From assembly GCA_049518555.1 (NCBI GenBank), contig JBEKRR010000013.1:5189-69188 (forward strand): DNA of 64,000 bases, written 5' to 3'. How positions within the stretch are numbered: the stretch's first letter is position 1; every line of letters starts with the position of its first letter. A model generated the notes under the pieces. That model did not search any database. It was given only the letters and a program-made list of their open reading frames with translations, and had not been told where the DNA came from. Origin of the DNA: Acidobacteriaceae bacterium. Lineage in GTDB: Bacteria; Acidobacteriota; Terriglobia; Terriglobales; Acidobacteriaceae. Below, piece after piece: positions 8,035 through 54,949 of the stretch. The position numbers and the translations under genes were made by a program.

Positions 8035-9219
<1,185 letters not shown>

Positions 9220-9303
9220 GGGCTCTTTCTACAGGTTCGTTGCGTTAAAAATGTAAAGCCTAATACAAGATTCTGGACCATCTTCCGCATCACAAACAAT
9301 ACA

Positions 9304-10356
9304 TCAATCGAGGTAGTGCTTTTCGGGCAGGGCGCGCAGGCGTTCGGCCGCGGTCTCCGGCGTAAGGTCGCGCTGCGGGCTGCCATACATCTCGAAGCCA
9401 ACCATGAATTTGCGAATCTGGGCCGAGCGCAGCAGCGGAGGGTAAAAATGCGCGTGGAAGTGCATGGAATCGTGCGCCTTGCCGTCCGTGGGCCGCTGGT
9501 GGAAGCCCAGGCTGTAGGGAAAGCTGGTCTGAAAGAGATTGTCGTAGCGCGTGGTCACGGCCTTCAGAATCGCCGCGAGGCTGGTGCGCTCTGCCGCCGT
9601 AAAGTCGGTGAGGCTGCCCATGTGGCGGCGCGGCAGCACCAGCGTCTCAAAGGGCCATGTGGCCCAGTAGGGAACGACCGCGACAAACAGATCGTTCTCG
9701 GCCACCATGCGCTCCGCCTGCGCCAGCTCGGTCGCCACATAGTCGCAGAGCAGGCAGCGGTGGTGCTCCGCAATGTAGTCCTGCTGCGCTTCCAGCTCGC
9801 GCATCGGCTCGTCCGGGACGTGCTCTGTGGCCCAGATCTGGCAGTGGGGGTGGGGATTGCTGGCGCCCATCATGGCGCCGCGGTTCTCGAAGATCTGCAC
9901 GTGGTTGATATACGGCAGATCGCCAAGCGCGGCCGTCTCGCCGGCCCACGCATCCACCACGGCTGCAATCTCGGCGACAGTCATGCGCGCCAGCGTCAGC
10001 GAGTGGTTGGGATGGAAGCAGAGTACGCGGCAACGCCCGCGCTCCGGCTGGGCCACCAGCAGCGGAGAGGCGTTCGGCTGCGCCTCCGGCTGAAGGTCGC
10101 TGAGCAGCGCGGGAAAGTCGTTGTCGAAGGCGAAGACGCCCGTGTATGCGGGATTGCGCGCGCCGCCGGAGCGCGCATTGCCCGGGCACAGATAACACGC
10201 CGGATCGTACGCCAGCCCCGTGCCGGCGGCCGACTTGCTCGTCTCGCCCTGCCACGGCCGCTCGGTGCGCTGCGGCGACACCAGAATCCACTGGCGCAGA
10301 AGCGGATTGTAGCGGCGGTGCGGAACGAGATCGAGTGGACGGGGCGAGGCGGGCAA
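9304..10356 (-). CDS. galT: Galactose-1-phosphate uridylyltransferase
   Basis: HRRYNPL, CYLCPGN, FENRGAMMGASNPHPHCQIW, RKFMVGFE; TTG start with SD AAGAGG. Confidence 0.96.
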   Translation of the reverse strand: MPASPRPLDLVPHRRYNPLLRQWILVSPQRTERPWQGETSKSAAGTGLAYDPACYLCPGNARSGGARNPAYTGVFAFDNDFPALLSDLQPEAQPNASPLLVAQPERGRCRVLCFHPNHSLTLARMTVAEIAAVVDAWAGETAALGDLPYINHVQIFENRGAMMGASNPHPHCQIWATEHVPDEPMRELEAQQDYIAEHHRCLLCDYVATELAQAERMVAENDLFVAVVPYWATWPFETLVLPRRHMGSLTDFTAAERTSLAAILKAVTTRYDNLFQTSFPYSLGFHQRPTDGKAHDSMHFHAHFYPPLLRSAQIRKFMVGFEMYGSPQRDLTPETAAERLRALPEKHYLD

Positions 10357-35774: not shown

Positions 35775-36566
35775 GTGAGCACCGCAGAAGCGGGAGAGCG
35801 TATGCAACCTACCATTCGGACGATCAAGCGACTTTGCGCCCTTTCGGATAATCGATGTGCCTTTGGAGGTTGCTCAACTCCCCTGGTGGACGATGAATCT
35901 GGAACCGTCACTGGCGTGATCTGCCACATCAAAGCGCAGCGGAAAGGCGGGCCGCGCTATGATCCAACTCAGTCGGAAACGGATCGGCAGGACTTTTCAA
36001 ACCTAATTATGTTATGCGCCACGCACCACAAAGTGGTAGACGCGGACGTAAAGCGGTTCACGGTCGAGTATTTACAGGAGATGAAGGAAAGACACAACTT
36101 AACCGGACGTAAGGAAGTCGAACCCATAGATGCTACGCGGGCTCAACTCCTCCTTCAGAACTACACGATCAGCGTACTGGGTCCGCTAACAGTCGGTACA
36201 ATTCACGCAGAAAATGTCACGATTAGCGGGAAACGGAACACGCGCCCCAAGATCGAACCACCACCGGATGTCATCGCAGGCAGTTCGGCGCACCGTCGCT
36301 ACGCACATCACTTGATTCAGCGGTACCAGTACTTTGCCAGCCGACAACCCGGGCGCATCTTTGGTCACGGGGCTGTATACAAGGCGATCGAGAGAAAATT
36401 TCGAGCAACTTGGGAATGGGTACCCCTCTCCCAGTTCGCAGAGTTCTCAGCTTTTATCCAAGAGAAAATCGACAGAACCCAACTCGGAAGAATCAATCGA
36501 AGCAAAGGTTTTAAGAACTACTCCTCATTTGAGCAGGAAGACAATAAGATTAAAGGCAAGTCTTGA
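35775..36566 (+). CDS. HNH-endonuclease-domain protein with an unknown C-terminal domain
   Basis: NRCAFGGC...CHIKAQRKGGPRYD...NLIMLCATHHKVVD; visibly AT-richer than the flanks; alternative ATG 35802. Confidence 0.7.
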   Translation: MSTAEAGERMQPTIRTIKRLCALSDNRCAFGGCSTPLVDDESGTVTGVICHIKAQRKGGPRYDPTQSETDRQDFSNLIMLCATHHKVVDADVKRFTVEYLQEMKERHNLTGRKEVEPIDATRAQLLLQNYTISVLGPLTVGTIHAENVTISGKRNTRPKIEPPPDVIAGSSAHRRYAHHLIQRYQYFASRQPGRIFGHGAVYKAIERKFRATWEWVPLSQFAEFSAFIQEKIDRTQLGRINRSKGFKNYSSFEQEDNKIKGKS

Positions 36567-37035: not shown

Positions 37036-37794
37036 CTACGCCAGCAGCACTTCGATGCCTTTGCCGCGCAGCAGTTCCACGTATTCGCCGTCGAGTTCGC
37101 TGTCGGAGACCACCGTATCGGCGTCCTCCAGCGGCCCCACCGGAATCATCGCGCCGCGGCCGAACTTGGTGTGGTCGGCGACGATGATCACCCGGCTGGC
37201 GATCTCGATCATCTTCTGCTCCGAGCCCACCACCAGCGTGTTGTTGTTGCTGAACCCGGCCTCGGTGACGCTGCCGATGCCCATGATAAGCACGTCGGCG
37301 CGGATCATGCCCAGCATCTGCTCGCACAGCGGCCCCAGCATGACGCGGAGGCGCGGGTCCAGATAGCCGCCGGTCAGCGTCAGTTCGATGTTGCGCCGCG
37401 CCTCCAGCGTCTCGGCGATGGGCAGCGAGTTGGTGACGATGTGCAGCGATTTTCCGGCAAGCTCTCCGGCGACAGCCGCAACGGTAGACCCGCCGTCCAG
37501 GATGACGGTCTGGCCGTCTTCAATCAGCCCGGCGGTAAGGCGCGCGATGCGGCCCTTCTCGTCGCTGAAGCGCCCGCTCTCCACGGTGAAGTCGAATGCG
37601 CCGTTGCCGGACGCGTGCACGGGAACCGCGCCGCCGTAAACTCGCCTGAGAACGCTCTCCGCCTCCAGCACGTCCAGGTCGCGGCGCACGCTGGACTCGG
37701 AGGCGTCGAGCTCGCGGCACAGGGTTTCCAGGTCGAGGAAGTCCTTGGCCTCGAACATCTGGCGGATTCTCAGTTGCCGTTCAGCAGCTTTCAT
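37036..37794 (-). CDS. DeoR/GlpR-family transcriptional regulator (last gene of the BMC operon)
   Basis: SESSVRRDLDVLE HTH, RRVYGGA, ILDGGSTV, IVTNSL, IIVADHTKFG. Confidence 0.93.
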   Translation of the reverse strand: MKAAERQLRIRQMFEAKDFLDLETLCRELDASESSVRRDLDVLEAESVLRRVYGGAVPVHASGNGAFDFTVESGRFSDEKGRIARLTAGLIEDGQTVILDGGSTVAAVAGELAGKSLHIVTNSLPIAETLEARRNIELTLTGGYLDPRLRVMLGPLCEQMLGMIRADVLIMGIGSVTEAGFSNNNTLVVGSEQKMIEIASRVIIVADHTKFGRGAMIPVGPLEDADTVVSDSELDGEYVELLRGKGIEVLLA

Positions 37795-37862: not shown

Positions 37863-38963
37863 TTAGGATTCGCCCATGGCGCTCATCACCGCATCGGTGA
37901 CCATCTTCACCAGGCGGTCCATCTCCGGAGCGTCGGCAGTGATGCGGGTGGCGCCGTCTCTCTTGCATGGAAGCAGCGCAATGGAGTTGGGGGCTTCCAT
38001 GTCGGACAACTGGCACTCCTTCATCGCCGCAGGGTCGAAGCGCGAGTCCGGCAGACCGAGCTTCTTCTTGATGGCCAGCAGGTCGGTGGTTTGCCTCTCG
38101 GAGATCTGCGAGATGGGAACGCCCAGTTGCGACGCCAGGATCAGAGTATGGCAGTAGGTGTCCACCACTTCGGCGTACCACTCGGCGTGGGTGACGGTGT
38201 CTGCCCAGCAGATGATGCCGTGGTTGGAGAGCAGCACCGTATTGTGCTCGCGCACATAGGGAATCACGGTCTGCGCGAAGGCTGCCGTACCCGGCGTCTC
38301 GTAGGGCGAGATAGCGACCTTGCCGACGAAGACCTCGAACTCCGGGATGATCCCGTTGGGCGGGACGCGCCCGGTGATGGCGTACGCCGTCGCATGGGGC
38401 GGATGGCAGTGGACACAAGCCTTGGCCTCCGGCACAGCCTTGTAGATCTCCAGATGCAGAAATATCTCGCTGGTGCGCGGCTTGGTCCCGGCAATCTGAA
38501 CGCCGTCCAGATCCACCAGGCACATATCTTCCGGCGTCAGGTCCAGCTTGCTGAACAGGGTCGGCGTGCAGAGTACCTCGTTGGGCCCGATGCGATACGA
38601 GATGTTGCCGCCGTTGCCATCGACGTAGCCGCGGTTCCACAGCTTGCGGCCGACGGCGCAGATCTCCTTCTTGACCGCCTCGGCCTCCGGCGTGGAGAAG
38701 AGCCGCGGATTGGCGGGGCTGCGCGTCGCCTGCACGGGGCTGGCTGCGCTGCTCCGGCTGGTCGAAGCCGCAACCACAGCGCCCGGGCCCATTACAAGCT
38801 CAATCTCGTTTTGCCGCAGAAAGTCGCGGGCCGAAGGTGTGATGACGCAGCGCTCGCAGACCCGCACCTGGGTTGCCCCGGCGGCCTGCGCGCTCTGCGC
38901 ATCGCGCATTGCCAGAACATTCTGTCCGGTAAGTTCAATCGTTTTCACTTCGCCCTTCCTCAC
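37863..38963 (-). CDS. Class II aldolase (fuculose/rhamnulose-1-P-aldolase-like), BMC cargo with N- and C-terminal extensions
   Basis: GNGGNIS, RTSEIFLH, VHCHPPHATA, LSNHG; C-terminal EMDRLVKMVTDAVMSAM encapsulation-peptide-like helix. Confidence 0.88.
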   Translation of the reverse strand: MRKGEVKTIELTGQNVLAMRDAQSAQAAGATQVRVCERCVITPSARDFLRQNEIELVMGPGAVVAASTSRSSAASPVQATRSPANPRLFSTPEAEAVKKEICAVGRKLWNRGYVDGNGGNISYRIGPNEVLCTPTLFSKLDLTPEDMCLVDLDGVQIAGTKPRTSEIFLHLEIYKAVPEAKACVHCHPPHATAYAITGRVPPNGIIPEFEVFVGKVAISPYETPGTAAFAQTVIPYVREHNTVLLSNHGIICWADTVTHAEWYAEVVDTYCHTLILASQLGVPISQISERQTTDLLAIKKKLGLPDSRFDPAAMKECQLSDMEAPNSIALLPCKRDGATRITADAPEMDRLVKMVTDAVMSAMGES

Positions 38964-38986: not shown

Positions 38987-39277
38987 CTATGACTTCCCTG
39001 TTGTGATGGAGTCGACGATCAACGTGCAATACGCATCCACCGGAGCTCGATTCGGCCAGAAAGGGTTCGCGGCCTCGGTGCCCTCGGTAAACGCCACCAT
39101 CTGGCCCCTGGCAGCGCCCAGCGCATCCACGGCGACCAGAGACTTGCCTCCGCCCAGGCCGTTTTTCGCCCGCAGGTTGGCCATCGTCACCGGCTCCAGC
39201 ACCACCAGCGTCAGGCCGAGCAGCTCCGGAACGGCTGGCGTCAGCGTGACGTGTCCGCGAACGATGCCCAGTCTCAT
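38987..39277 (-). CDS. BMC vertex (pentamer) protein, EutN/CcmL family
   Basis: MRLGIVRGHV..., AVDALGAARGQMV, PVDAYCTLIVD. Confidence 0.88.
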   Translation of the reverse strand: MRLGIVRGHVTLTPAVPELLGLTLVVLEPVTMANLRAKNGLGGGKSLVAVDALGAARGQMVAFTEGTEAANPFWPNRAPVDAYCTLIVDSITTGKS

Positions 39278-39552
39278 GCGGCCCTCCCTGTGCCCTGCAC
39301 CGGGTCCACGATTCCCACCACCACCATGCGGCCCGGCGTTGTGTTGCCGTAGCGCTCGCGCGCGATGTCGCCGTCGGTGGAGACCAGGACGGTGGAACCG
39401 AATGCCGCGCCCAGCAGGTCGATCAGGACCAGCGGCTCCGCGCCGGCGCTGCCGTCGGCCTCCAGCCGCTGGGCCACCAGAAAACGGCAGCCCTCCAGCG
39501 TGGCGTGCTTGGCCGCCGGAACTACCGTGCCGTCGATGCGGGCCAGAAACAT
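39274..39552 (-). CDS. BMC vertex (pentamer) protein, EutN/CcmL family
   Basis: MFLARIDGTVV..K...L.G, IDLLGAAFGSTVLV, VVVGIVD; ATG 2 bp after the AldDH stop. Confidence 0.9.
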   Translation of the reverse strand: MFLARIDGTVVPAAKHATLEGCRFLVAQRLEADGSAGAEPLVLIDLLGAAFGSTVLVSTDGDIARERYGNTTPGRMVVVGIVDPVQGTGRAA

Positions 39553-39554
39553 GG

Positions 39555-41024
39555 CTAGACGATCCTCAGTGCGCCACCGATGGTGAGCTGGCGCTCGCGG
39601 GTGAATGTCAGCGGCGTGGTGATGCCCTCGCCGGTCGGTGTCGCAATGCTGTGGCTCAGGTATCCCGGCCCGCCAAAGCCCAGCGACGCCAGCGACGAGG
39701 CGTTGCTGACGAAGATCGTCGTGTTCATGGCGCGCGCCATGCGCGTCACTGCGTCCACATCCTTCGAGTGAATCACTGCCGTGTGCCGGTAGCCGTGCTC
39801 CGCCTTCACCGCAGCCTTGATGCCCGCGTCCACGCACGACACGCGAACGATTGGGATGAACGGCATCATCTGCTCCTCGACGACGAAGGCATGGTCCTCG
39901 TTTGTCTCGCCGAAGAGGATCTGCGTGCTGGCCGGAACGGTCACCCCGGCCGCCGCTGCAAGCACTGCGACGTCCTTGCCGACCAGTTCCTTCTTCACAT
40001 GCGCGCGCGCGCATCCTTTGCCGTCGCCCTCGAAGGTGAAGGCGGCCTGCGTCAGCCGTTCGATTGCGGCCTTGTTCAACTCGAAGCCGCCCGCGCGGCG
40101 CATCGCATCCATGAACGCCGAGGCGATCGACGCGACCACGAAGACCTCTTTCTCGCCGATGCAGAGCAGGTTGTTGTCGAAGGCCCCGCCCTCGATGATG
40201 CACCGCGCGGCCAGGTCGAGGTCGGCGTTCTGGTCCACCACCACCGGCGGATTGCCCGGCCCGGCCGCAATCACGCGCTTGCCGAACTTGCTCGCCGCCT
40301 GCACCACCATCGGCCCGCCAGTGACGCACAACAGCGCGACCTTGGGATGCTGAAAGATCTCCCCAGCCGCTTCAATGCTGGGTTCCAGAATGGTGGTGAG
40401 CACGTTGGCCACGCCGCACTCGCTCTCGATCTCGCGGTTGAAGAGCTGCAACGCGAACTGCGAGACGCGCTTGCCCGACGGGTGCGGCGCAAAGATCGCC
40501 GTGTTGCCCGCGGCCAGAATGTTGATCGCGTTGGCGGCCATCGTCGGCACCGCGTGGGTGACGGGAAGCACCATGCCGATGACGCCCCAGGGTGCGTGTT
40601 CGATCAAAAGCAACCCGGACGAATCGCTGCGCGCCTCGCTGTGCATCGCCTCCACGCCCAGCACGTAGCGCATGTTTTTCAGCTTCTGAATCTTGTGGTC
40701 CAGCCGGCCCACCTTGGTCTCTTCCAGCTCCATCTTGCCCAGCTCTTCCGAGCGGTCGATGCAGATCCGCCGCACGATGGAGATCATGCGCCCGCGCTCT
40801 TCCAGGCTCATCTCCTCGACCTTCTTCTGTGCCACCTGCGCCGCGTTGACCGCCTCGTCCACGGTGAGGAAGACGCCGTCGTGCGCGTCCGCGCTGCTGG
40901 CATGTCTAGCGGATGCCGGCGCGCTGGCTGGCAACGGCACCGGCTGCGCCTGCTGCATCTGGGCGCGGAGCCGTGCCACAACCTCCCGCGCAATCTCCGC
41001 GATCACCTGTTCCTGGTTCGTCAT
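39555..41024 (-). CDS. CoA-acylating aldehyde dehydrogenase (PduP/EutE-like) with N-terminal encapsulation peptide
   Basis: APWGVIGMVLPVTH, VTGGPMVV, AAGPGNPPVVVD, FDNNLLCIGEKE, EEQMMP, EHGYRHTA, ATPTGEG; N-terminal EQVIAEIAREVVARL. Confidence 0.93.
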   Translation of the reverse strand: MTNQEQVIAEIAREVVARLRAQMQQAQPVPLPASAPASARHASSADAHDGVFLTVDEAVNAAQVAQKKVEEMSLEERGRMISIVRRICIDRSEELGKMELEETKVGRLDHKIQKLKNMRYVLGVEAMHSEARSDSSGLLLIEHAPWGVIGMVLPVTHAVPTMAANAINILAAGNTAIFAPHPSGKRVSQFALQLFNREIESECGVANVLTTILEPSIEAAGEIFQHPKVALLCVTGGPMVVQAASKFGKRVIAAGPGNPPVVVDQNADLDLAARCIIEGGAFDNNLLCIGEKEVFVVASIASAFMDAMRRAGGFELNKAAIERLTQAAFTFEGDGKGCARAHVKKELVGKDVAVLAAAAGVTVPASTQILFGETNEDHAFVVEEQMMPFIPIVRVSCVDAGIKAAVKAEHGYRHTAVIHSKDVDAVTRMARAMNTTIFVSNASSLASLGFGGPGYLSHSIATPTGEGITTPLTFTRERQLTIGGALRIV

Positions 41025-41044: not shown

Positions 41045-41344
41045 TTACGGCTTCTCCAATATCTTGCCGTCGACCTCGACCGTATCCACGATGCCGACAA
41101 GCACCGCATCCACCGGCGCATCCTTGGTCGCCGGCGTCAGCCGCGCCGAGCTTCCCTGCGTAAACAACACGCACTCGCCGATTCCCGCGCCAACACTGTC
41201 AACCGCCACCACGGAGCTGCCGGAGATCTCCAGCCGGCCCTCCCGGTGGTTGATGTACGGCTGGACCAGCAGCAGCTTCATCCCACGGAACTTCTCGTTC
41301 TTCTGCGTGGAGACGACATTGCCGATTACTTTTGCGATAAACAT
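41045..41344 (-). CDS. BMC vertex (pentamer) protein, EutN/CcmL family
   Basis: MFIAKVIGNVVSTQK, VAVDSVGAGIGE, PVDAVLVGIVD. Confidence 0.95.
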   Translation of the reverse strand: MFIAKVIGNVVSTQKNEKFRGMKLLLVQPYINHREGRLEISGSSVVAVDSVGAGIGECVLFTQGSSARLTPATKDAPVDAVLVGIVDTVEVDGKILEKP

Positions 41345-41400: not shown

Positions 41401-41673
41401 CTATTTCGGCAATACGGACCCCAGGCTGCTGTGCGGCCGCGCGATCACATGCACGCTCATCACCTCGCCGGCTTCCTTGGCGGCTGCCGCTCCCGCATCC
41501 ACCGCCGCGCGCACGCTGCCTACATCGCCTTGAACGAAGACCGAGCACAACCCGCTGCCAACCTTGTTCCATCCGACGAACTCGACGCTTGCCGCCTTCA
41601 GCATCGCGTCGGTGGCCTGCACCAGGGCTACCAGGCCCTTCGTCTCAATCATTCCAATCGCTTCATTGGCCAT
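41401..41673 (-). CDS. BMC hexamer shell protein (BMC-H)
   Basis: [41 protein letters not shown]. Confidence 0.96.
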
Positions 41674-41767: not shown

Positions 41768-42037
41768 TTACTTCAGAAAGCTGTCGACCAGCGCATCGTG
41801 CGGACGCGCGATCACATGCGAGGCCACCAGTTCGCCGACTGCCTTGGCTGCGGCCGCTCCGGCATCCACGGCCGCGCGCACGCTGCCTACGTCTCCGCGC
41901 ACGATCGCGGTCACAAATCCTCCGCCAATCTGCACGGTCTTCACCAGCTCCACACTGGCAGCCTTCACCATCGCATCGCTTGCCTCGACCAGTCCGACGA
42001 GGCCCTTTGTTTCGATCAATCCAATTGCTTCACTCAT
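41768..42037 (-). CDS. BMC hexamer shell protein (BMC-H)
   Basis: [42 protein letters not shown]. Confidence 0.96.
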
Positions 42038-42133: not shown

Positions 42134-42427
42134 CTATTTCTTGATTGCGGCCTTCTTCTCCGCTTGCACGAAGGAGGGCAGCTCGTCGTGGGGGCGCGAG
42201 ATCACCTGAACGCTGACCACCTCGCCGATCCGCGATGCGGCTTCCGCGCCGGCATCGGTTGAGGCCTTCACCGCGGCCACGTCGCCTTCAACAAAGGCAG
42301 TGACCAGTCCCGACCCCACCGACTGCCAGCCGGTAAAGGTCACGTTTGCGGATTTCAGCATCGCGTCAGTCGCCTCGAACAGCGCGACCAAGCCCTTCGT
42401 TTCTATCATTCCAAGCGCTTGTTTCAT
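42134..42427 (-). CDS. BMC hexamer shell protein (BMC-H)
   Basis: ALGMIETKG, DAMLKSA, SVGSG, EGDVAAVKA, VISRPH. Confidence 0.96.
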   Translation of the reverse strand: MKQALGMIETKGLVALFEATDAMLKSANVTFTGWQSVGSGLVTAFVEGDVAAVKASTDAGAEAASRIGEVVSVQVISRPHDELPSFVQAEKKAAIKK

Positions 42428-42480: not shown

Positions 42481-43185
42481 TTACTTCAGCAGTTCAATGT
42501 CCTTGGTCAGATGCAGGCCGCACGCATTGGCCTCGTCGGTGTCCATGTGGACGTTGAGCCGTGAGGTTGGGTCGATGCGGACGTGAACGTTGTTGAAGGT
42601 CGTGCTGGCCGCTCCGCCCACGCGCAGCTTCATCAGGTCGCCCTGCTTGACACCGAAGTAGGCTGCCTCGCCCGGGTTCATGTGCACGTGGATGGCCGCG
42701 CGAATGATGCCTTCCTTCAGTTCGATGTTGCCCTTCGGCCCCATGATGATCGCGCCCGGCGTTCCCGCGATGTTGCCGGAGAGACGCACCGGGATATCGT
42801 CGAAGCCCAGGCTGATGGCGTCGGTGAACGCCAGCTCCACCTGCGACTGCTTGCGCATCGGCCCCAGGATGCGCAGGTTGGAGATCAGGCGGCTGCGCGG
42901 TCCAATGATCGTCACCTTCTCGTTGGCGGCGAAGTTGCCCGCCTGGTACAGCTCCTTGTAGACCGTCAGCTCCGTGCCCGGCCCGAACAGAACGTCCATG
43001 TCCGCGCGGCAGATGTGCATGTGCCGCGCCGAGGCCAGCACGGTCAGCAACGGAGCTTCGCCGACTGCGCGGCCCGCGCCATCGCGGCCAAGATACTCCA
43101 ATGCGACTTGACGAACGATCTGCTCCACCACCGACCGGTCGATCGTTTGAGACGGTTTCGTTAGTGCTGCGCTTCCACTTGCCAT
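42481..43185 (-). CDS. pduL: PduL-family phosphotransacylase with N-terminal encapsulation peptide
   Basis: SARHMH, RILGPMR.QSQVE, PVRLSG, IRAAIHVHM, VHMDTDEANA; N-terminal RSVVEQIVRQVALEYL. Confidence 0.93.
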   Translation of the reverse strand: MASGSAALTKPSQTIDRSVVEQIVRQVALEYLGRDGAGRAVGEAPLLTVLASARHMHICRADMDVLFGPGTELTVYKELYQAGNFAANEKVTIIGPRSRLISNLRILGPMRKQSQVELAFTDAISLGFDDIPVRLSGNIAGTPGAIIMGPKGNIELKEGIIRAAIHVHMNPGEAAYFGVKQGDLMKLRVGGAASTTFNNVHVRIDPTSRLNVHMDTDEANACGLHLTKDIELLK

Positions 43186-43213: not shown

Positions 43214-44398
43214 TCATCTCGCTGCTTCGATTGATTTCCCTATACCTTCCCGCTTCACTGCGCCCCGTTCGACAACGCTCACGGTGTCGCGCGCAACCAC
43301 ACTCTCTTCATCCGCCGGAACGATCAGCACCGTGACGGCGGAGGTCTTGCTGGAGATCACCTGCGCGGTGCGCGCCGCGCGGTTCACCGCCTCGTCGATC
43401 TCGATCTCGAAGGAGGCCAGGTTCCGGCACACCGCGGCGCGAGTCTCCCAACTGTTCTCGCCGATGCCGCCGGAGAAGCTGATCACGTCCACCCCGTCCA
43501 GCTCCAGCATGAACGCCCCAAGATAGTGGCGGATGGCGCGCACATACACATCCAGCGCAAGCCGCGCGCGGTGGCTGCCCGCCGCAGCCGCCTCTTCCAT
43601 GTCGCGCATGTCGCCGCTGGTGCCGCTGATCCCCGCCAGGCCGGACTGGCTGCCCAGAATGCGCGCCATCTCGTCCGGGCCAAAGTCCAGCTTCTTCATC
43701 ATGTACAGCACGGCGAAGGCGTCGATGTCGCCCACGCGATTGTTCTGCGGCAGGCCGGACTGCGGCGATGTGCCGAAGCTGGTGTCGATGGCCACCCCGT
43801 CGCGGAAGGCCGCAATGCTGGAGCTTCCTCCCAGATGGCAGGAGATGTGGCGCAGGTTGGGCTTATTGAACTGCTTGCGCACATTCTCGCTGGCCGCGCG
43901 ATGGCTCGCTCCGTGGAAGCCATAGCGGCGTATGCCGAACTCCGTGCGCCACTCGTACGGCACCGCGTAGGCGGTGGCAGCCTCGTCCAGCGATGCGTAG
44001 GGAATGGTCTCGAAGACCGCGACCAGAGGCACGCCGGGCAGTGCGTCGCGAAAGGCCTTCATGGCGGCGATATACGGAGGATTGTGCGCGGGCGCGAAGA
44101 AGGAGAAGGCGTCCATCGCCGCCAGCAGCTCGTCGTTCACCAGGCACGGGCCGGAGAGCGGGCCGGCATGAACCGCCTTGAATCCCACCGCTTCAATCTC
44201 CGACAGGCTCTTCAGCGCCTTGCCGGGGCCCACCACATCGGCAATGCACTTGCGGATCGCGGAGGGGTAGTCGGGACAATCGCCGCCGGGCTGCCCAATC
44301 CGTTCCACCCGTCCATTGGCCAACACCGTCTCCTCCGGCATCTTCAGCACGCGGTACTTGAAGGACGTGCTGCCGATATTGGGGATCAGACATATCAT
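43214..44398 (-). CDS. ackA: Acetate/propionate-family kinase (BMC-associated)
   Basis: NIGSTSFKY, APAHNPP, RRYGFHGASH, CHLGG, RVGDID, GGIGEN, ADEE. Confidence 0.9.
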   Translation of the reverse strand: MICLIPNIGSTSFKYRVLKMPEETVLANGRVERIGQPGGDCPDYPSAIRKCIADVVGPGKALKSLSEIEAVGFKAVHAGPLSGPCLVNDELLAAMDAFSFFAPAHNPPYIAAMKAFRDALPGVPLVAVFETIPYASLDEAATAYAVPYEWRTEFGIRRYGFHGASHRAASENVRKQFNKPNLRHISCHLGGSSSIAAFRDGVAIDTSFGTSPQSGLPQNNRVGDIDAFAVLYMMKKLDFGPDEMARILGSQSGLAGISGTSGDMRDMEEAAAAGSHRARLALDVYVRAIRHYLGAFMLELDGVDVISFSGGIGENSWETRAAVCRNLASFEIEIDEAVNRAARTAQVISSKTSAVTVLIVPADEESVVARDTVSVVERGAVKREGIGKSIEAAR

Positions 44399-44562
44399 CG
44401 TGACGAACGATTCAGTTTGGCGAACTGCATTGCAGCGCAGCGGAATGCATTCCGTAGTGACAAACTACATATTGCACCAGTTGTTACTACGGACTAAGTT
44501 AACGATGAACTACTAACTGATAAGTCCGCCAAACTACCAATTCTGACGGACTATGAACGTTC

Positions 44563-44607
44563 TTGACTGCATAAAAACCATATCGTATATTGACTGTCAG
44601 AGTCAAT
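44563..44607. promoter_or_regulatory. Overlapping divergent sigma70 promoters and operator palindrome of the BMC locus
   Basis: Plus strand: TTGACT(44563)-N17-TATATT(44586). Minus strand: TTGACT(44606)-N18-TATGGT(44582). Palindrome ATTGACT-N5-AGTCAAT at 44589-44607. Confidence 0.6.
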
Positions 44608-44640
44608 CAGAATCGTGAACGACTTTGAGGATTTCGCCCG

Positions 44641-45993
44641 ATGGCACCAGAGGCAGGTGGAGCGCTAATGGCTGCGGCCAAAGGTAGATCGCAACCGATG
44701 ACCCCAGCTCGCGTGGGCGAGCTGGGCATTGTGGGCGCAGGTGGCGGGGGATTTCCCACGGCGGTGAAGCTGGGGACGCGCGTGCCGCTGGTGATCGCCA
44801 ATGCGGCTGAGTGCGAGCCGCTGCTGCACAAGGACAAGGAGCTGCTGCACCACCTCTCCGAGCCGTTCCTGCGCGGCATGATCGCGGCCATGGAGATGGT
44901 GGGCGCGCCGCAGGGCGTCATCGGCATCAAGGAGAAGTACCACGACATCATCGCCGCGATGGAGCAGCAGACGCCCAAAAACATCCGCGTCGCGCTGCTG
45001 CCGGACGCCTACCCGGCGGGCGACGAGTTCATCCTGGTCCACATCGTCACCGGCCGCGTCATCCCTCCCGGCGGGCTGCCCAAGGACGTGGACGCAATGG
45101 TGGCCAACATCGAGACCCTGATGAACATTGGGCTGGACCAGCCGGTGACCGAGAAGTATCTCACCGTCGCCGGCGCGGTGCGCAACCCCATCACGTTGCG
45201 CGTGCCCATCGGCATCACCATCGGCGAGGTGATCGAAGCCGCGGGCGGAGCAACGGTCGGCGACTTCAGCGTGCTGCTGGGCGGCGTGATGATGGCGCGT
45301 CCCGCCGCTGGTCTAGACGTTCCTGTCACCAAGACGACCGGCGGCATTGTCGTTCTACCCTCCTCGCACAAGCTGATCGAACGCCACGCCGCCAAGTGGC
45401 CGGTGATTGCGCGCGTCGGCCGCTCGGCCTGCGACCAGTGCCGCTTCTGCACGGAGTTTTGCCCGCGCTATTTGCTGGGCCATCCCATCCAGCCGCACCG
45501 CGCCATGCAGTCGCTGGGCTTCAGCCCCAGCCCGGCGGAGATCGTCGCCGGCACGCTCTACTGTTGCGAGTGCAACCTGTGCAGCCTGTACGCCTGCCCG
45601 GAGGACCTCGACCCCAAGAACGTCTGCGTGCAGTCCAAGCCCGCGGCGCGCGCCAACGGGCTCTTCTTCACCGGAACGCCGGAGTCGGTGACGCCGCATC
45701 CCATGGCGGACTACCGCCGCGTGCCCATGTCGCGCCTGATCTCGCGGCTGGGGCTCTCCGAGTTCCACAACGTCGGCCCGCTGACCGAACACAGCTTCTC
45801 GCCCAGCCGCGTCACTCTGCCGTTGAAGCAGCACGCGGGCGCGCCTGCGGTTGCGGTGGTCAAGACGGGACAAAAGGTGAACGTGGGCGACCTGCTGGCC
45901 GCACCCGAGGAGGGCAAGCTGGGAGCGCGCATCCACGCCAGCATTCGCGGCGTGGCGCGGCTCACGCACGACTCGGTGGTGATCGATGCATAG
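44641..45993 (+). CDS. pduS: PduS/RnfC-like Fe-S flavoprotein (NADH-binding, SLBB, 2x[4Fe-4S])
   Basis: GIVGAGGGGFPT, NAAECEPLL, YPAGDE, CDQCRFCTEFCPRYLLGH, CCECNLCSLYACP, C-terminal LKQHAGAP barrel (PduS domain order); alternative ATG 44668. Confidence 0.88.
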   Translation: MAPEAGGALMAAAKGRSQPMTPARVGELGIVGAGGGGFPTAVKLGTRVPLVIANAAECEPLLHKDKELLHHLSEPFLRGMIAAMEMVGAPQGVIGIKEKYHDIIAAMEQQTPKNIRVALLPDAYPAGDEFILVHIVTGRVIPPGGLPKDVDAMVANIETLMNIGLDQPVTEKYLTVAGAVRNPITLRVPIGITIGEVIEAAGGATVGDFSVLLGGVMMARPAAGLDVPVTKTTGGIVVLPSSHKLIERHAAKWPVIARVGRSACDQCRFCTEFCPRYLLGHPIQPHRAMQSLGFSPSPAEIVAGTLYCCECNLCSLYACPEDLDPKNVCVQSKPAARANGLFFTGTPESVTPHPMADYRRVPMSRLISRLGLSEFHNVGPLTEHSFSPSRVTLPLKQHAGAPAVAVVKTGQKVNVGDLLAAPEEGKLGARIHASIRGVARLTHDSVVIDA

Positions 45994-46046
45994 CTCGAAT
46001 CGGACTGGCTTGACGCGTAAGACGAAGCTCGGAAGGAGCCAACCTC

Positions 46047-46607
46047 GTGGCTGATATTCAATCGATCGGACTCATCGAACTCTCCAGCGTTGCCACCGGC
46101 TATCAGGTTGAGGACGTGATGTTGAAGGCCGCCAAGGTCCAGGTCCTGATGGCGCGCAGCATCTGCTCCGGCAAGTTTCTGATCGCCATCGCCGGCGACG
46201 TGGCATCAGTGACCACCGCAGTAGAGGCGGGAGGCGCTGCCGCTGGCGCTTCGCTCATCGAGCGGCGTCAGATCGCCCGCGTCCACCCCTCCGTGCTTCA
46301 TGCCATCTCGCAATCCGTGGAGATCAACCCCTCGCAATTGCGCTCCATCGGCGTCATCGAGACATTTTCCGCGTCGAGCATCATCGACGCAGCGGACGCG
46401 GCCGTCAAGTCCGCCAACGTCACCCTGCTACGCGTCCATCTGGCAATGGCCCTGGGCGGCAAGGGCTTTATGCTGATGGCGGGCGATGTATCCAGCGTGC
46501 AGGCCGCCGTCGAAGCCGGATCGAAGGCCGCCGCCGAAGAAGGAATGCTCGTCTCCCGCGGAGTGATTCCCGCGCCCTCCGAGGAGCTCTTCCGCGATTA
46601 CATCTGA
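46047..46607 (+). CDS. pduT: Tandem-domain shell protein (BMC-T), PduT-like with pore Cys
   Basis: SIGLIELSSVATG, MLKAA, RSICSGKF (PduT ICPGK), second domain SIGVIETFS...LGGKG. Confidence 0.9.
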   Translation: MADIQSIGLIELSSVATGYQVEDVMLKAAKVQVLMARSICSGKFLIAIAGDVASVTTAVEAGGAAAGASLIERRQIARVHPSVLHAISQSVEINPSQLRSIGVIETFSASSIIDAADAAVKSANVTLLRVHLAMALGGKGFMLMAGDVSSVQAAVEAGSKAAAEEGMLVSRGVIPAPSEELFRDYI

Positions 46608-46917: not shown

Positions 46918-48078
46918 TTGCGCCTTGCTATTGTGAAGGAAGCAGCCGTTGGAGAGACCCGTGTTGCGCTGCTTCCCGACGCCGTAAAGAAGCTGATCGC
47001 CAATGGCCTTGAGGTTGCGGTGGAAGCCGGCGCGGGAGTGAAGTCGGGGATTCTCGACGAGGCGTACGCGCAGGCCGGAGCGACGCTGGCGACCGATCGC
47101 GCCGCGCTTCTCGCCTCCGCCGACATCCTGCCCGTGGTCAACGCGCCCCCGGCCGAGGACCAGCGCAAGATCAAGCCCGGCTGCGTTGTGATCGGCTTTC
47201 TGCGTCCGCTGGACAACCCCTCCGCGCTGCTTCCGGCCATCGAGACTGGGGTCACGCTGTTCTCTGTCGAGCTGGTGCCGCGCATCACGCGCGCGCAGGC
47301 CATGGACGCGCTGTCGTCAATGGCCACCGTCGCCGGCTACAAGGCGGTGATTCTGGCCGCCGACACGCTGCCGCGACTCTTCCCCATGCTGATGACCGCG
47401 GCGGGGACCATTGCGCCGGCGCGGGTCTTTGTGATCGGAGCAGGAGTTGCGGGCCTGCAGGCGATCGCCACCGCGCGCCGCCTGGGCGCCGTGGTGGAGG
47501 CGTACGACGTACGCGCCGCCGCGGGCGAGCAGGTGCGGTCGCTGGGCGCGAAGTTCCTGGATGTGGACCTGGGCGGACTTGCCACCGAAGACAAGGGAGG
47601 CTACGCCAAGGAGCTGAGCGAAGAGGCGCTCGACCGTGGCCGCGACCTGATCGCCAAGACCGCCAAGACCGCCGACGTCATCATCACCACCGCGCAGGTT
47701 CCCGGCCGGCCCGCTCCGCTGCTGTTGCGCCGCGATGCGGTGGAGAACATGCGTCCCGGCACGGTGCTGGTGGACCTGGCAGCCGCTGGCGGCGGAAACT
47801 GCGAGCTGACCAAGCCGGGCGAGACCCAGGTGCACAACGGAGTGACTCTGCTTGCCCCGCTCAATCTGCCGGCCGCCGTTCCCGGCCACGCCAGCCAGCT
47901 CTACTCGCGCAACATCTCCAACTTCCTCGCCCTCATCGTCAAGGACGGCGCGCTCCACCTCAACATGGAGGACGAGATTCTCAGCGGCTCCTGCGTGGCC
48001 CATCAGGCCAAGGTCGTCAATCCGCGCGTGGCTTCGGCACTGGAAGCCGCGGCGGGCAGTCAAACAGTTTCGCAATAA
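46918..48078 (+). CDS. pntAA: NAD(P) transhydrogenase subunit alpha part 1 (dI)
   Basis: KE...GETRVAL.P, PRITRAQAMDALSS, GAGVAGLQAIATA, GGYAKE; TTG start with SD GGAGG. Confidence 0.95.
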   Translation: MRLAIVKEAAVGETRVALLPDAVKKLIANGLEVAVEAGAGVKSGILDEAYAQAGATLATDRAALLASADILPVVNAPPAEDQRKIKPGCVVIGFLRPLDNPSALLPAIETGVTLFSVELVPRITRAQAMDALSSMATVAGYKAVILAADTLPRLFPMLMTAAGTIAPARVFVIGAGVAGLQAIATARRLGAVVEAYDVRAAAGEQVRSLGAKFLDVDLGGLATEDKGGYAKELSEEALDRGRDLIAKTAKTADVIITTAQVPGRPAPLLLRRDAVENMRPGTVLVDLAAAGGGNCELTKPGETQVHNGVTLLAPLNLPAAVPGHASQLYSRNISNFLALIVKDGALHLNMEDEILSGSCVAHQAKVVNPRVASALEAAAGSQTVSQ

Positions 48079-48091
48079 ACCCGAGAGGCCT

Positions 48092-48418
48092 ATGAATCCT
48101 GCTGTTCTGATCGCTTCGGTCTACGTCTTCGCTCTCGCCGCCTTCCTGGGCTACCAGGTCATCAGCCGCGTGCCGCCCCTGCTGCATACGCCGCTGATGT
48201 CGGCGACCAATGCCATCAGCGGCATCTCGCTGATCGGCTCGCTGGTTCTGGCCGGGGCCACTCACTCGCCAGTTGCGCACATTCTGGGCTTTATCGCCGT
48301 CACCGCATCCACCATCAACGTGGTCGGCGGATTCGGCATCACCGACCGCATGCTGAAGATGTTCGGCAAGCGCAAGGACGAGGGGAAGAAGGCGCCTGCC
48401 GCGGGGGCGTCCCAATGA
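48092..48418 (+). CDS. pntAB: NAD(P) transhydrogenase subunit alpha part 2
   Basis: VPPLLHTPLMSATNAISG, INVVGGFGITDRMLKMF. Confidence 0.95.
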   Translation: MNPAVLIASVYVFALAAFLGYQVISRVPPLLHTPLMSATNAISGISLIGSLVLAGATHSPVAHILGFIAVTASTINVVGGFGITDRMLKMFGKRKDEGKKAPAAGASQ

Positions 48419-49794
48419 GCCTCACTTCCTACTTCATGGAAGCGACTTACCTGGTCGCCTCCATCCTCTTCGTACTCGCCTTGAAGGGCATGTCTCATCC
48501 GGAGACGGCGCGGCGCGGAATGTTCATGGCCGAGGGCGGAATGTTCATGGCCATCGTCGGCACGCTGATTGGCGCGCACATCGTCACCTGGGAATGGATC
48601 CTCGTGGGGCTCACCATCGGCTCCATCATCGGCATATGGATGGCGCTCTTCGTTCCCATGACCTCGATGCCGCAGCGGACCGCGCTATCCCACGCCTTTG
48701 GCGCCTTGGCGGCTGCGCTGGTCGGCGTCGGCGAGTTCATCATCCGCGGCTCGGAGATGACCGTCGTCACGCGCGGCGCACTGGGATTTGAAGTCATGCT
48801 GGGCGCGCTCACCACCACCGGCTCGCTCATCGCGGCGGGCAAGCTGCACGGCACCATCCCTGGCAAACCCATCCAGTTCCGCGGCCAGAACGCCATCAAC
48901 CTGGTCATCTTTCTCATCATGACGGGCAGCTTCGTCTACTTCTGGATGCACCCCTCCGTCATCGCGGCCTTCTACACCATGCTGGGCGTGGCGTTCGTCT
49001 TCGGCGTCATGCTGGTCATCCCCATCGGCTCGGCAGACATGCCCGTCGTCATGTCGCTGTTGAACAGCTACGCCGGCCTGGCCGCAGCCGCCACCGGCTT
49101 CGTGCTAGGCAACAACGTCCTGATCATCGCCGGCACGCTGGACGGCTTCTCCGGCTTCATCCTGTCGGTGCTGATGTGCAAGGCGATGAACCGGTCCATC
49201 ACCAACGTGCTCTTCGGCGGCTTCGGCGCGGTTATCGCCACGGCCTCAACCAACGTCGGCGGAGTGATGCGCGAGATTACGCTGGACGACGCGGCCATGC
49301 AGCTTGCCTTTGCCAACCGCGTCATCTTCGTCCCCGGCTACGGCCTTGCCACCGCCCAGGCGCAGCACGCCGTGCGCGAGCTGGGCGAGTTGCTGGAGTC
49401 GCGCGGCGTCACCGTCAAGTACGCCATCCATCCCGTCGCCGGACGCATGCCCGGACACATGAACGTGCTTCTGGCCGAGGCCAACGTCCCCTACTCGCAG
49501 CTCTACGAGATGGAGCAGATCAACCCCGAATTCCCCTCCACCGATGTGGCCGTCGTGATCGGCGCCAACGACGTCGTCAATCCCGACGCGCGCGACAATC
49601 CCAACTCGCTCATCGCCGGTATGCCCATTCTGGAAGTGGACCGCGCCAAGAGCGTCATCGTGCTCAAACGCGGCCAGGGGCGCGGCTTCTCCGGGCTGGA
49701 GAACCCGCTCTTCTTCAAGTCCAACACCAACATGCTCTACGGCGACGCCAAGAGCACCCTCAGCCACCTCGCCCAGGCCGTGCAGCACGTCTGA
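48415..49794 (+). CDS. pntB: NAD(P) transhydrogenase subunit beta
   Basis: TSMPQ..ALSHAFG, IGSADMPVV.SLLNSYAG, PGYGLA.AQAQ, HPVAGRMPGHMNVLLAEA, GANDVVNP. Confidence 0.97.
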   Translation: MSLTSYFMEATYLVASILFVLALKGMSHPETARRGMFMAEGGMFMAIVGTLIGAHIVTWEWILVGLTIGSIIGIWMALFVPMTSMPQRTALSHAFGALAAALVGVGEFIIRGSEMTVVTRGALGFEVMLGALTTTGSLIAAGKLHGTIPGKPIQFRGQNAINLVIFLIMTGSFVYFWMHPSVIAAFYTMLGVAFVFGVMLVIPIGSADMPVVMSLLNSYAGLAAAATGFVLGNNVLIIAGTLDGFSGFILSVLMCKAMNRSITNVLFGGFGAVIATASTNVGGVMREITLDDAAMQLAFANRVIFVPGYGLATAQAQHAVRELGELLESRGVTVKYAIHPVAGRMPGHMNVLLAEANVPYSQLYEMEQINPEFPSTDVAVVIGANDVVNPDARDNPNSLIAGMPILEVDRAKSVIVLKRGQGRGFSGLENPLFFKSNTNMLYGDAKSTLSHLAQAVQHV

Positions 49795-52198: not shown

Positions 52199-53656
52199 AT
52201 GCCACTTCTTCACGCACCAATGACTCTTCGCCGCCCGCACAAGCGCCTGCTGCAACTCGCCTGCCTCGCGTCCCTGGCGACGGCAGCCTTTGCCCAGCAG
52301 CCAAGTGCGGCGGTCGATGCGCCACGGGCTGCGTTGGCTGTCCAACAGCAGGCTGCGCCACAGAGTGCGTCTGTTGCCGCGCAGCCGCCTGCCGCTGCCA
52401 TCACCCTGGACGATGCGATTGCGCGCGCGCGCGCCAACGAGCCAACCTTCGCGGCCGCAGTAGCGGCCAGCCGCAATGCGGCGCTCGATCAGTCCATCGC
52501 CCGCGCGGCGATGCTGCCCAACGCCGTCTATAACAATCAGTTCATCTACACCCAGGGCGGCGCGGGGCTCATCCCCGATCCGGCAAAGCTGAAGGACCCG
52601 CAGCAACGCAGCGCCTCGTTGCCCCGCTTCATCGCCAACAACGGCGTTCACGAATACCTCAGTCAGGCTTCGGTGACGGAGAACATCGGCCTGCAGCAGT
52701 TCAATGCCGCCAGCAAGGCATCGGCCTCGCTCTCCGTCGCCACGGCCGAACTTGAGGTCGCCCGCCGCGGCCTGGTCGCCAGCGTCGTCGGGCTCTTCTA
52801 CACAGCCTCCTCTGCCGGCCGCCGGATCGCGGTGGCCCAGCGCGCGGCCAACGAGGCGGCAAGCCTCACCACCCTCACCCAGCAGCGCGAGACGGCCCGC
52901 GAAGTCGCCCATGCCGACGTCGTCAAGGCGCAGCTTCAGCAGCAACAGCGCGACCGCGACCTGACGGATGCGCGCCTGGAGGCAGACCGCGCCCGGCTCG
53001 ACCTTGCCGTGCTGCTCTTTCCCGATCCGCGCACGCCGTACACACTGGCCGTGCCTGACGCGCCACCCCCGGTGCCCGCGCGCGCCGACGTGGAGGCGGC
53101 GCTGGCCAGGCACAATCCGGAACTGGCAAGCGCACTGGCCAGCGCGCATCTTGCCGACCTGAATGTCACCTCCGCCCGCCTGGGATACCTGCCCGATCTC
53201 TCCCTCAACTACTCCTATGGCATCGACGCCGCGCAGTTCGCGCGCTACAACCAGCTTGGCGACCGCAACCTCGGCTACTCCGCCAGCGCCACGCTGAACA
53301 TCCCGCTCTGGGACTGGTTTGCCACACGCGACCGCATTCGCCAGAGCGAGATCAACCGCGATGTGGCGCGTGCCGCGCTCACCAACACCCAGCGCAAGCT
53401 CATCGCCGACCTGGAAGAGGTCTACGCCGAAGCCGTGGCCGCGCACGACCAGCTCGAAAGCCTGGACCTTAGCGTAACCACCGCGGCGGAGAGCCTTCGC
53501 CTCACGCGGCTCAGTTACTCCGCCGGTGAAACGCCGATTCTCGAAGTCGTGGATGCGGAGAACTCGCTGACCACCGCCGAACTTGCCCGCGAGGACGGCA
53601 TCGTCCGCTACCAGACCGCTCTCGCGAACCTTCAGTTGCTGACAGGAACGATCTAA
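52199..53656 (+). CDS. TolC-family outer-membrane efflux protein
   Basis: ITLDDAIARA, YLPDLSL, LNIPLWDW, YSAGETPILEVVDA; start 52199 or 52220. Confidence 0.9.
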   Translation: MPLLHAPMTLRRPHKRLLQLACLASLATAAFAQQPSAAVDAPRAALAVQQQAAPQSASVAAQPPAAAITLDDAIARARANEPTFAAAVAASRNAALDQSIARAAMLPNAVYNNQFIYTQGGAGLIPDPAKLKDPQQRSASLPRFIANNGVHEYLSQASVTENIGLQQFNAASKASASLSVATAELEVARRGLVASVVGLFYTASSAGRRIAVAQRAANEAASLTTLTQQRETAREVAHADVVKAQLQQQQRDRDLTDARLEADRARLDLAVLLFPDPRTPYTLAVPDAPPPVPARADVEAALARHNPELASALASAHLADLNVTSARLGYLPDLSLNYSYGIDAAQFARYNQLGDRNLGYSASATLNIPLWDWFATRDRIRQSEINRDVARAALTNTQRKLIADLEEVYAEAVAAHDQLESLDLSVTTAAESLRLTRLSYSAGETPILEVVDAENSLTTAELAREDGIVRYQTALANLQLLTGTI

Positions 53657-54949
53657 ATGATTAATCCGCCAAGCCTTCTTCCACGCCTCGCATCGCGCGC
53701 GCTCCAGCGCCCGGCCCTCCTCCTCTGCGCATCGCTGTTGTTGCCTCTCGGCTGCAAGAAGGCCGAGGAGGCGCCCGCGCCCGTGGTCGCCGTTCAGGCC
53801 GCGCATCCGGTGCAGGGGAACATCCATGAGCAGATTGCAGCGGACGCCATCCTCTCGCCGCTGGCGCAGGCCGCCATCTCGCCCAAGGTCAGCGCGCCGG
53901 TGAAGAAGTTCTATGTGCAGCGCGGCTCGCAGGTCCACGAGGGCGAACTGCTGGCGACGCTGGAGAACAGCGATCTCTCCGCCGCGGCGCTGGACAATCA
54001 GGGCAGCTACACCGCCGCGCAGGCCACGTTCGATACGGCAACCAAGGCCACCGCGCCCGAAGACCTGACCAAGGCGCGGCTCGATCTGGCGCAGGCCAAG
54101 GCCAATCTCGACCTCGCCCAGTCCATCGTTACCGCGCGCAGCCAGCTCTTCACGCAGGGTGCGATTCCCGGGCGCGAGCTGGACACCGCCAAGGCGGCGC
54201 TGGTGGAATCGCAGGCCACATACGACATCGCCAAGGAGCATTTTGACTCGATGCAGAGCGTCAGCCACAAGGCCGCGCTGGAGAACGCGCAGGGGAATCT
54301 CGACTCCGCCAAAGGGAAGTATCTCGGCGCACAGGCCGAACTGAGCTACACCGAGATTCGCAGCCCCATCGCCGGCGTCGTCACCGACCGCCCGCTCTTT
54401 GCCGGCGAGACCGCGGCCGCCGGAACTCCGCTCATCACCGTCATGGACACCTCCGCGCTCATTGCCAAGCTGCACATCGCGCAGATGCAGGCCCAGCAGC
54501 TCGAGATCGGCGCTCCGGCCACGCTCACCGTCCCCGGCGTCGCCGGGCCCGTACCCGCCAAGGTTTCGCTCATCAGTCCCGCGCTCGATCCCGGCAGCAC
54601 AACCGTCGAGGTGTGGCTGCGCGTGGAGAACGCCAGGAGCGCGCTCAAGGCGGGAACGCCGGTCCACGCGTCCATCCAGGGCCGCACCATCTCCAACGCA
54701 CTCACCGTTCCCGCGGATGCCATCCAGAGCAGCCCGGACGGAAGCTCTAAGTTCGTCATGGTGATCGCGCCCGACTCCACCGCGCACAAGCACACCGTCA
54801 CGCTGGGAATCCAGAACGCGGACGCGGTGCAGATTCTCAGCGGCCTCACTCCAGCCGACATGGTGATCTCCACCGGCGCGTACGGACTCGACGAGAACAC
54901 CAGGGTCAAGATCGGCGCGGCCGAAGATTCCGGAAAGGACGCCGAGTGA
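53657..54949 (+). CDS. RND efflux periplasmic adaptor (MFP)
   Basis: Lipobox LPLGC; VQRGSQVHEGELL, IRSPIAGVV lipoyl halves, VPADAI. Confidence 0.92.
   Translation: MINPPSLLPRLASRALQRPALLLCASLLLPLGCKKAEEAPAPVVAVQAAHPVQGNIHEQIAADAILSPLAQAAISPKVSAPVKKFYVQRGSQVHEGELLATLENSDLSAAALDNQGSYTAAQATFDTATKATAPEDLTKARLDLAQAKANLDLAQSIVTARSQLFTQGAIPGRELDTAKAALVESQATYDIAKEHFDSMQSVSHKAALENAQGNLDSAKGKYLGAQAELSYTEIRSPIAGVVTDRPLFAGETAAAGTPLITVMDTSALIAKLHIAQMQAQQLEIGAPATLTVPGVAGPVPAKVSLISPALDPGSTTVEVWLRVENARSALKAGTPVHASIQGRTISNALTVPADAIQSSPDGSSKFVMVIAPDSTAHKHTVTLGIQNADAVQILSGLTPADMVISTGAYGLDENTRVKIGAAEDSGKDAE

Follow-up and report, generated by a model that had tools for sequence, protein, structure and literature searches.

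A pair of adjacent genes encoding a PduS-type protein and a PduT-type shell protein lies divergent to a complete aldolase metabolosome operon in a peat-soil Acidobacterium, and probably constitutes the MNdh/BMC-T^SE cofactor-recycling module of that organelle, a PVM-type metabolosome with a class II aldolase that oxidises lactaldehyde. According to this reading, the acylating aldehyde dehydrogenase (AldDH) inside the shell would convert NAD+ to NADH, and the PduS-type protein, bound to the side of the PduT-type trimer that faces the lumen, would oxidise this NADH at its FMN. Electrons would pass through the two [4Fe-4S] clusters of the PduS-type protein and reach a third [4Fe-4S] cluster at the pore of the trimer, where three Cys40 residues would ligate it; from this pore cluster they would leave the shell to a cytosolic acceptor. 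The private NAD+ pool would be regenerated without an alcohol or lactate dehydrogenase, and therefore all of the aldehyde would be free to proceed through acyl-CoA and acyl-phosphate to ATP. The literature on homologues is the source for the oxidation of NADH, the formation of a complex and the transfer of electrons to the BMC-T cluster, which are ascribed to the pair by analogy, while we infer that the PduS-type protein lies in the lumen, that electrons flow outward in this host and that the pair is the sole recycling route.

The window, that is the whole stretch of 64,000 nucleotides that was analysed, has a G+C content of ~65% and comes from an assembly of 3.14 Mb in 152 contigs that is 98% complete. 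Its relatives are peat and bog Acidobacteriaceae MAGs (Granulicella, Terracidiphilus) together with the cultured Telmatobacter bradus. For comparison, 80 related Acidobacteriaceae loci were gathered with PduS as the query. As such a retrieval is biased toward PduS carriers, a second sample of 151 genomes spread over the family was scanned for PduS and PduL.

The PduS-type and PduT-type proteins

An earlier, sequence-only reading of this DNA had recognised in the first gene of the pair (Table 1) the domain order of PduS with both of its Cys clusters, and this was confirmed by Pfam, by alignment to RnfC and by motif conservation in relatives. From its N-terminus the protein matches PF01512 (Complex1_51K, residues 26-163, E 1e-38), PF10531 (SLBB, residues 174-218), the 4Fe-4S dicluster family PF13534 (Fer4_17, residues 263-324) and PF13375 (RnfC_N, residues 386-438), the last of these corresponding to a C-terminal barrel. 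This is the domain order of MNdh proteins, and it is permuted with respect to RnfC. The match to RnfC (7ZC6_C, E 4e-44) falls into two stretches that reveal the circular permutation, residues 386-440 aligning with RnfC 28-81 and residues 25-320 with RnfC 127-415; identity across the core of FMN/NADH, SLBB and dicluster regions is ~36%, and the Cys and glycine-rich motifs line up with those of RnfC. The eight cysteines are arranged as two CxxCxxCxxx(x)CP motifs, CDQCRFCTEFCP and CCECNLCSLYACP, and are accompanied by the glycine-rich FMN/NADH motifs that also characterise MNdh. Both Cys motifs are found in all 80 relatives, the second with variants, and the cofactor motifs GAGGGGFP and NAAECEP are kept in 78 and 79 of the 80, respectively. 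The annotated Salmonella cobalamin reductase PduS shares 43-44% identity across 93% of the length. An AlphaFold2 prediction that used a 22-sequence alignment of close homologues only reached a mean pLDDT of 57.4. The start of the ORF, ATG 44641, has a GAGGA sequence ~10 nt upstream; the alignments of many homologues begin no earlier than residue 20-24, however, and ATG 44698 may thus be the real start.

The PduT-type gene starts 53 nt 3' of the PduS-type gene on the same strand. Its product matches Salmonella PduT (3N79, E 4e-47, 45.5% identity; 3PAC was also matched), and its pore residue Cys40, within the sequence ICSGK, lies opposite Cys38, the cluster ligand of PduT, in the alignment, which bears out the earlier statement that this BMC-T keeps the Cys of an ICxGK motif. 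A tandem PF00936 architecture, a length of about 185 aa and a Cys matching C38 of PduT are the features of BMC-T^SE proteins, and all three are present. ICSGK is retained in 78 of 79 related PduT-type proteins. The sequence departs from the CP(G/S)K motif of the 2024 survey discussed below in having C-S-G-K, with Ser in place of Pro, although the Cys, Gly and Lys are retained. With 132 bits, where the cut-off for TIGR02526 (eut_PduT) is 250, it falls short of equivalog level, and judged by sequence it is a divergent relative rather than the enteric equivalog. The PduS-type protein similarly scores 204 bits against a cut-off of 246 for the RnfC subfamily model of NCBIfam. Since both proteins lie under the nearest NCBIfam cut-offs, they are divergent members of their families.

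Table 1. Features of the metabolosome locus, with positions numbered along the window.
Feature	Position	Strand	Basis or remarks
DeoR-family regulator	37036..37794	-	PF00455, PF08220
Class II aldolase, signature enzyme	37863..38963	-	PF00596 at residues 100-274
BMC-P	38987..39277	-	PF03319
BMC-P	39274..39558	-	PF03319
Acylating aldehyde dehydrogenase (AldDH)	39555..41024	-	PF00171; NF011927, 565 bits, cut-off 403
BMC-P (EutN/CcmL) vertex protein 1	41045..41344	-	PF03319
BMC-H shell protein	41401..41673	-	PF00936
BMC-H shell protein	41768..42037	-	PF00936
BMC-H shell protein	42134..42427	-	PF00936
PduL phosphotransacylase	42481..43185	-	PF06130, E 6e-66; NF011652 above cut-off
Acetate kinase (AckA), first gene of the operon	43214..44398	-	PF00871, E 2.5e-90
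Divergent intergenic region	44399..44640		242 bp, AT-richer; promoter-like hexamers on both strands
PduS-type protein, predicted metabolosome NADH dehydrogenase (MNdh)	44641..45993	+	450 aa; Pfam, RnfC and Salmonella PduS matches
PduT-type tandem BMC-T, predicted BMC-T^SE	46047..46607	+	186 aa; two PF00936 domains, E 4e-42

The divergent operon and its coupling to the pair

The pair diverges from a complete operon on the minus strand (Table 1) whose content of class II aldolase, DeoR regulator, AckA, PduL, AldDH and a BMC-P triplet identifies it as PVM-type. The AldDH is the NADH producer of this operon. With every ORF accounted for it is also the only dehydrogenase there, and no alcohol, lactate or malate-like dehydrogenase is encoded in the operon; the earlier claim that the operon lacks a dehydrogenase for recycling holds, the sole Fe-ADH of the genome being located elsewhere. 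Terminal amphipathic helices, read by eye from the translations, are present on three of the enzymes. The AldDH begins with an encapsulation peptide, EQVIAEIAREVVARL, followed by an Ala/Pro/Ser linker, PduL has an encapsulation-peptide-like helix, VVEQIVRQVALEYL, at its N-terminus, and the class II aldolase has an N-terminal extension of ~95 aa as well as a C-terminal encapsulation-peptide-like helix. Beside the BMC locus, in a stretch of lower G+C content, there is also a 263-aa ORF (35775-36566) with no Pfam match.

The association of the pair with the operon is strict. As far as the contigs reach, all 80 loci have the operon on one strand, in the order DeoR-aldolase-P-P-AldDH-P-H-H-H-PduL-AckA, and PduS and PduT on the opposite strand. 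In the family-wide sample PduS was found in 4 of the 151 genomes and PduL in the same four, each within ~2 kb of PduS, while the other 147 have neither. A neighbouring gene for a pore-Cys BMC-T and co-occurrence with a BMC locus containing an acylating AldDH, both seen here, are likewise expected of an MNdh. The locus is patchily distributed, being present in so few of the sampled genomes and absent even from a genome of the same genus (G058), and this suggests a history of repeated loss or horizontal transfer.

There is no conserved gene 3' of PduT among the related loci. In the present window the pair is followed, 310 bp after PduT, by pntAA-pntAB-pntB (46918-49794), which encode a proton-translocating transhydrogenase. 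We considered these genes as part of the module and rejected them, since just 6 of 79 loci, each from a close relative, have them next to PduT; their adjacency to it is probably incidental.

The intergenic region contains promoter-like hexamers directed toward the pair (TTGACT-17-TATATT, 44563-44591) and toward the operon (TTGACT-18-TATGGT, 44606-44577, minus strand), and a perfect 7-bp inverted repeat, ATTGACT-GTCAG-AGTCAAT (~44590-44610, in the stretch 44585-44612), that overlaps both sites. The intact palindrome is limited to the nearest relatives (seven loci), while an 8-mer family around CAGAGTCAATC, corresponding to a half-site, occurs in up to 66 of the 80 loci. Because the palindrome is local and its conserved half falls on the -35-like hexamer of the promoter on the minus strand, there is no solid evidence for a common operator, and it was discarded as a candidate.

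The rest of the genome and alternative explanations

Across the whole genome, BMC-domain genes are confined to the main locus and a single satellite BMC-T on another contig (C9). Searches of the 3.14-Mb assembly gave no match to EutB (PF06751) or to a PFL-like glycyl-radical enzyme (PF02901), the positive control matching in each case. The large subunit of diol dehydratase (PF02286) also gave no match in the assembly, a weak negative as no control genome was matched either. The sequence-only reading had seen no B12-dependent or glycyl-radical enzyme at the locus, which holds, and had named a genome-wide search for B12-dependent BMC cargo as a check; with the reservation just given for PF02286, that search found none. 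It had also conceded that its interpretation would fall if the pair belonged to a separate Pdu or Eut BMC elsewhere in the genome. Because these searches, of which that for PF02286 had no working control, found no B12 or glycyl-radical cargo, and there is only one satellite BMC-T outside the main locus, the pair cannot serve such an organelle.

The satellite BMC-T, a tandem protein without a pore Cys, immediately follows a DHDPS-family (PF00701) gene; the two genes occupy contig C9:19311-20929 (positions 8612-10230 of locus L001), outside the window. The DHDPS-family protein is extended at its C-terminus by ~45 conserved residues, the last of which form an encapsulation-peptide-like helix (DK.EQVV..VM.EL.KRG). 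Its full-length homologues are numerous, and the C-terminal helix is conserved. One homologue at 77% identity again adjoins a BMC gene on its 3' side; this pair is located on a 570-kb contig (L086) and has genes for an FGGY kinase, an MFS protein and an Iso_dh protein as neighbours. The DHDPS-family protein may be a second, pyruvate-dependent, aldehyde-releasing cargo aldolase. The DHDPS/satellite BMC-T pair is absent from three other BMC-carrying genomes of the family. Elsewhere in the genome, a FucI-like isomerase (504 aa) adjoins an SSS transporter on contig C91 (7554-11317), and a RhaA-type rhamnose isomerase was not found in the genome.

Salmonella PduS was reportedly first described as a cobalamin (corrin) reductase, and given the identity of 43-44% to the protein annotated in this way, and the presence in the genome of three B12-binding-domain proteins of housekeeping type, the PduS-type protein could be imagined to reduce corrins for housekeeping B12 enzymes, with the PduT-type protein an unrelated shell tile. 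We consider this very unlikely. A housekeeping reductase would not track the BMC operon and a Cys-bearing BMC-T, whereas PduS is limited to those genomes of the family sample that have the operon (4 of 151) and is always paired with a BMC-T of this kind. The genome searches, of which that for PF02286 had no working control, found no B12-dependent BMC cargo, and published analysis sees little room for a corrin site (PMC11626177). The B12-binding proteins of the genome do make a side role in corrin reduction possible. Rather less improbable, but still unlikely, is that the main recycling of NAD+ takes place elsewhere, through an encapsulated dehydrogenase or through exchange of NAD(H) via a BMC-T pore, so that PduS and PduT would act as an auxiliary, condition-dependent valve. 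The genome does encode one Fe-ADH (contig C17, ~53500-54700) and another BMC-T that lacks a pore Cys, and in Pdu systems both routes coexist and knockouts are mild (PMC11626177). However, the Fe-ADH begins directly at its catalytic core, without a terminal or targeting extension, and is found beside a 1111-aa sigma-54 PAS regulator rather than near sugar or BMC genes, and the three BMC-carrying family genomes that lack the satellite BMC-T retain PduS and PduT. The Fe-ADH could nonetheless contribute.

Finally, published docking with AlphaFold puts MNdh on the outer, concave face of the shell in half of its solutions (PMC11626177), a placement in keeping with reversed electron flow that brings reducing power into the lumen, or with a redox sensor or gate on the shell. 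To this we attach almost no probability, as neither a luminal reductive step nor an Fe-S or radical enzyme is encoded at the locus, its sole luminal redox enzyme produces NADH, and other types of BMC, once purified, contain MNdh (PMC11626177). The MNdh/BMC-T^SE module thus remains our preferred reading. That luminal NADH is oxidised and electrons are exported across the shell in place of a dehydrogenase, as originally proposed from this sequence, is supported by analogy with homologues; the interpretation of the pair as an NAD+-recycling module appears correct but is not new, because the MNdh/BMC-T^SE model has already been published (PMC11626177).

Comparison with known systems

Electron export across a BMC shell was proposed in 2014 for GRM1 and SPU loci (PMC4207490). 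The MNdh/BMC-T^SE model itself (Sutter et al., PNAS 2024; PMC11626177) combines a survey and AlphaFold models with the purification of a complex, EPR signals that depend on NADH and activity assays, and only the C. botulinum pair is known to oxidise NADH with transfer to the BMC-T cluster and to form a stable complex. The survey finds 361 BMC loci with the pair and no alcohol dehydrogenase, gives PVM as one of the types in which the pair occurs, places 18 of 20 PVM occurrences in satellite loci and reports the CP(G/S)K cluster-binding motif as universal (PMC11626177). The pair described here therefore adds an example to a known electron-export model rather than a new mechanism, and what is new is the Acidobacteriaceae host, the position of the pair beside the main locus and the CSGK pore motif.

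The Acidobacteriaceae lineage provides a clean natural case for MNdh/BMC-T^SE, with the module strictly tied to an aldolase metabolosome that is free of alcohol dehydrogenase. We are more hesitant about a stronger version, in which the pair might be the only route of NAD+ recycling for the lactaldehyde-oxidising BMC of peat-soil Acidobacteriaceae, the reducing equivalents of deoxy-sugars would then exit the organelle as electrons and not as 1,2-propanediol, and CSGK might represent a lineage-specific tuning of the cluster; this is somewhat less likely than not. As there is a cultured carrier of the BMC locus with PduS and PduT, Telmatobacter bradus DSM 23630 (locus L072), the sufficiency of the module alone can be tested in vivo.

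Among better-known organelles, the Pdu system of Salmonella enterica has a PduS and a PduT with the same Cys ligands, at 43-44% and 45.5% identity, respectively, but differs in its diol dehydratase, its PduO and GH reactivation genes and its PduQ alcohol dehydrogenase, none of which is seen here. More generally, and unlike Pdu, Eut and GRM BMCs, the present system gave no matches to the signature enzymes diol dehydratase (searched for without a working control), ethanolamine ammonia-lyase and glycyl-radical enzyme. RnfC (PDB 7ZC6_C) and NuoF share with the PduS-type protein the core of FMN/NADH, SLBB and dicluster regions, with cofactor motifs that align; in contrast to RnfC, the RnfC_N barrel is located at the C-terminus, and no other rnf genes are nearby.

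The gene content matches the PVM metabolosome of Planctomycetes and Verrucomicrobia (Erbilgin 2014, via PMC4207490), which is described as a fucose/rhamnose type with class II aldolase, DeoR, acetate kinase, PduL, AldDH and three BMC-P, and with a lactate/malate-dehydrogenase-like gene for NAD+ regeneration. The operon studied here, which belongs to a different phylum, has three BMC-H and, compared with that description, no lactate/malate-dehydrogenase-like gene, the recycling role being taken, in our interpretation, by PduS and PduT. With the systems of the MNdh/BMC-T^SE survey it has in common the four-domain architecture with C-terminal RnfC_N, an adjoining BMC-T with a Cys at its pore, an acylating AldDH and a non-B12 BMC without alcohol dehydrogenase, and the mechanism that we propose is identical. 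The pair differs from those surveyed in its Acidobacteriaceae host and in bearing CSGK rather than CP(G/S)K at the pore, and, where 18 of the 20 PVM pairs in the survey are in satellite loci, this one adjoins the main locus, in divergent orientation.
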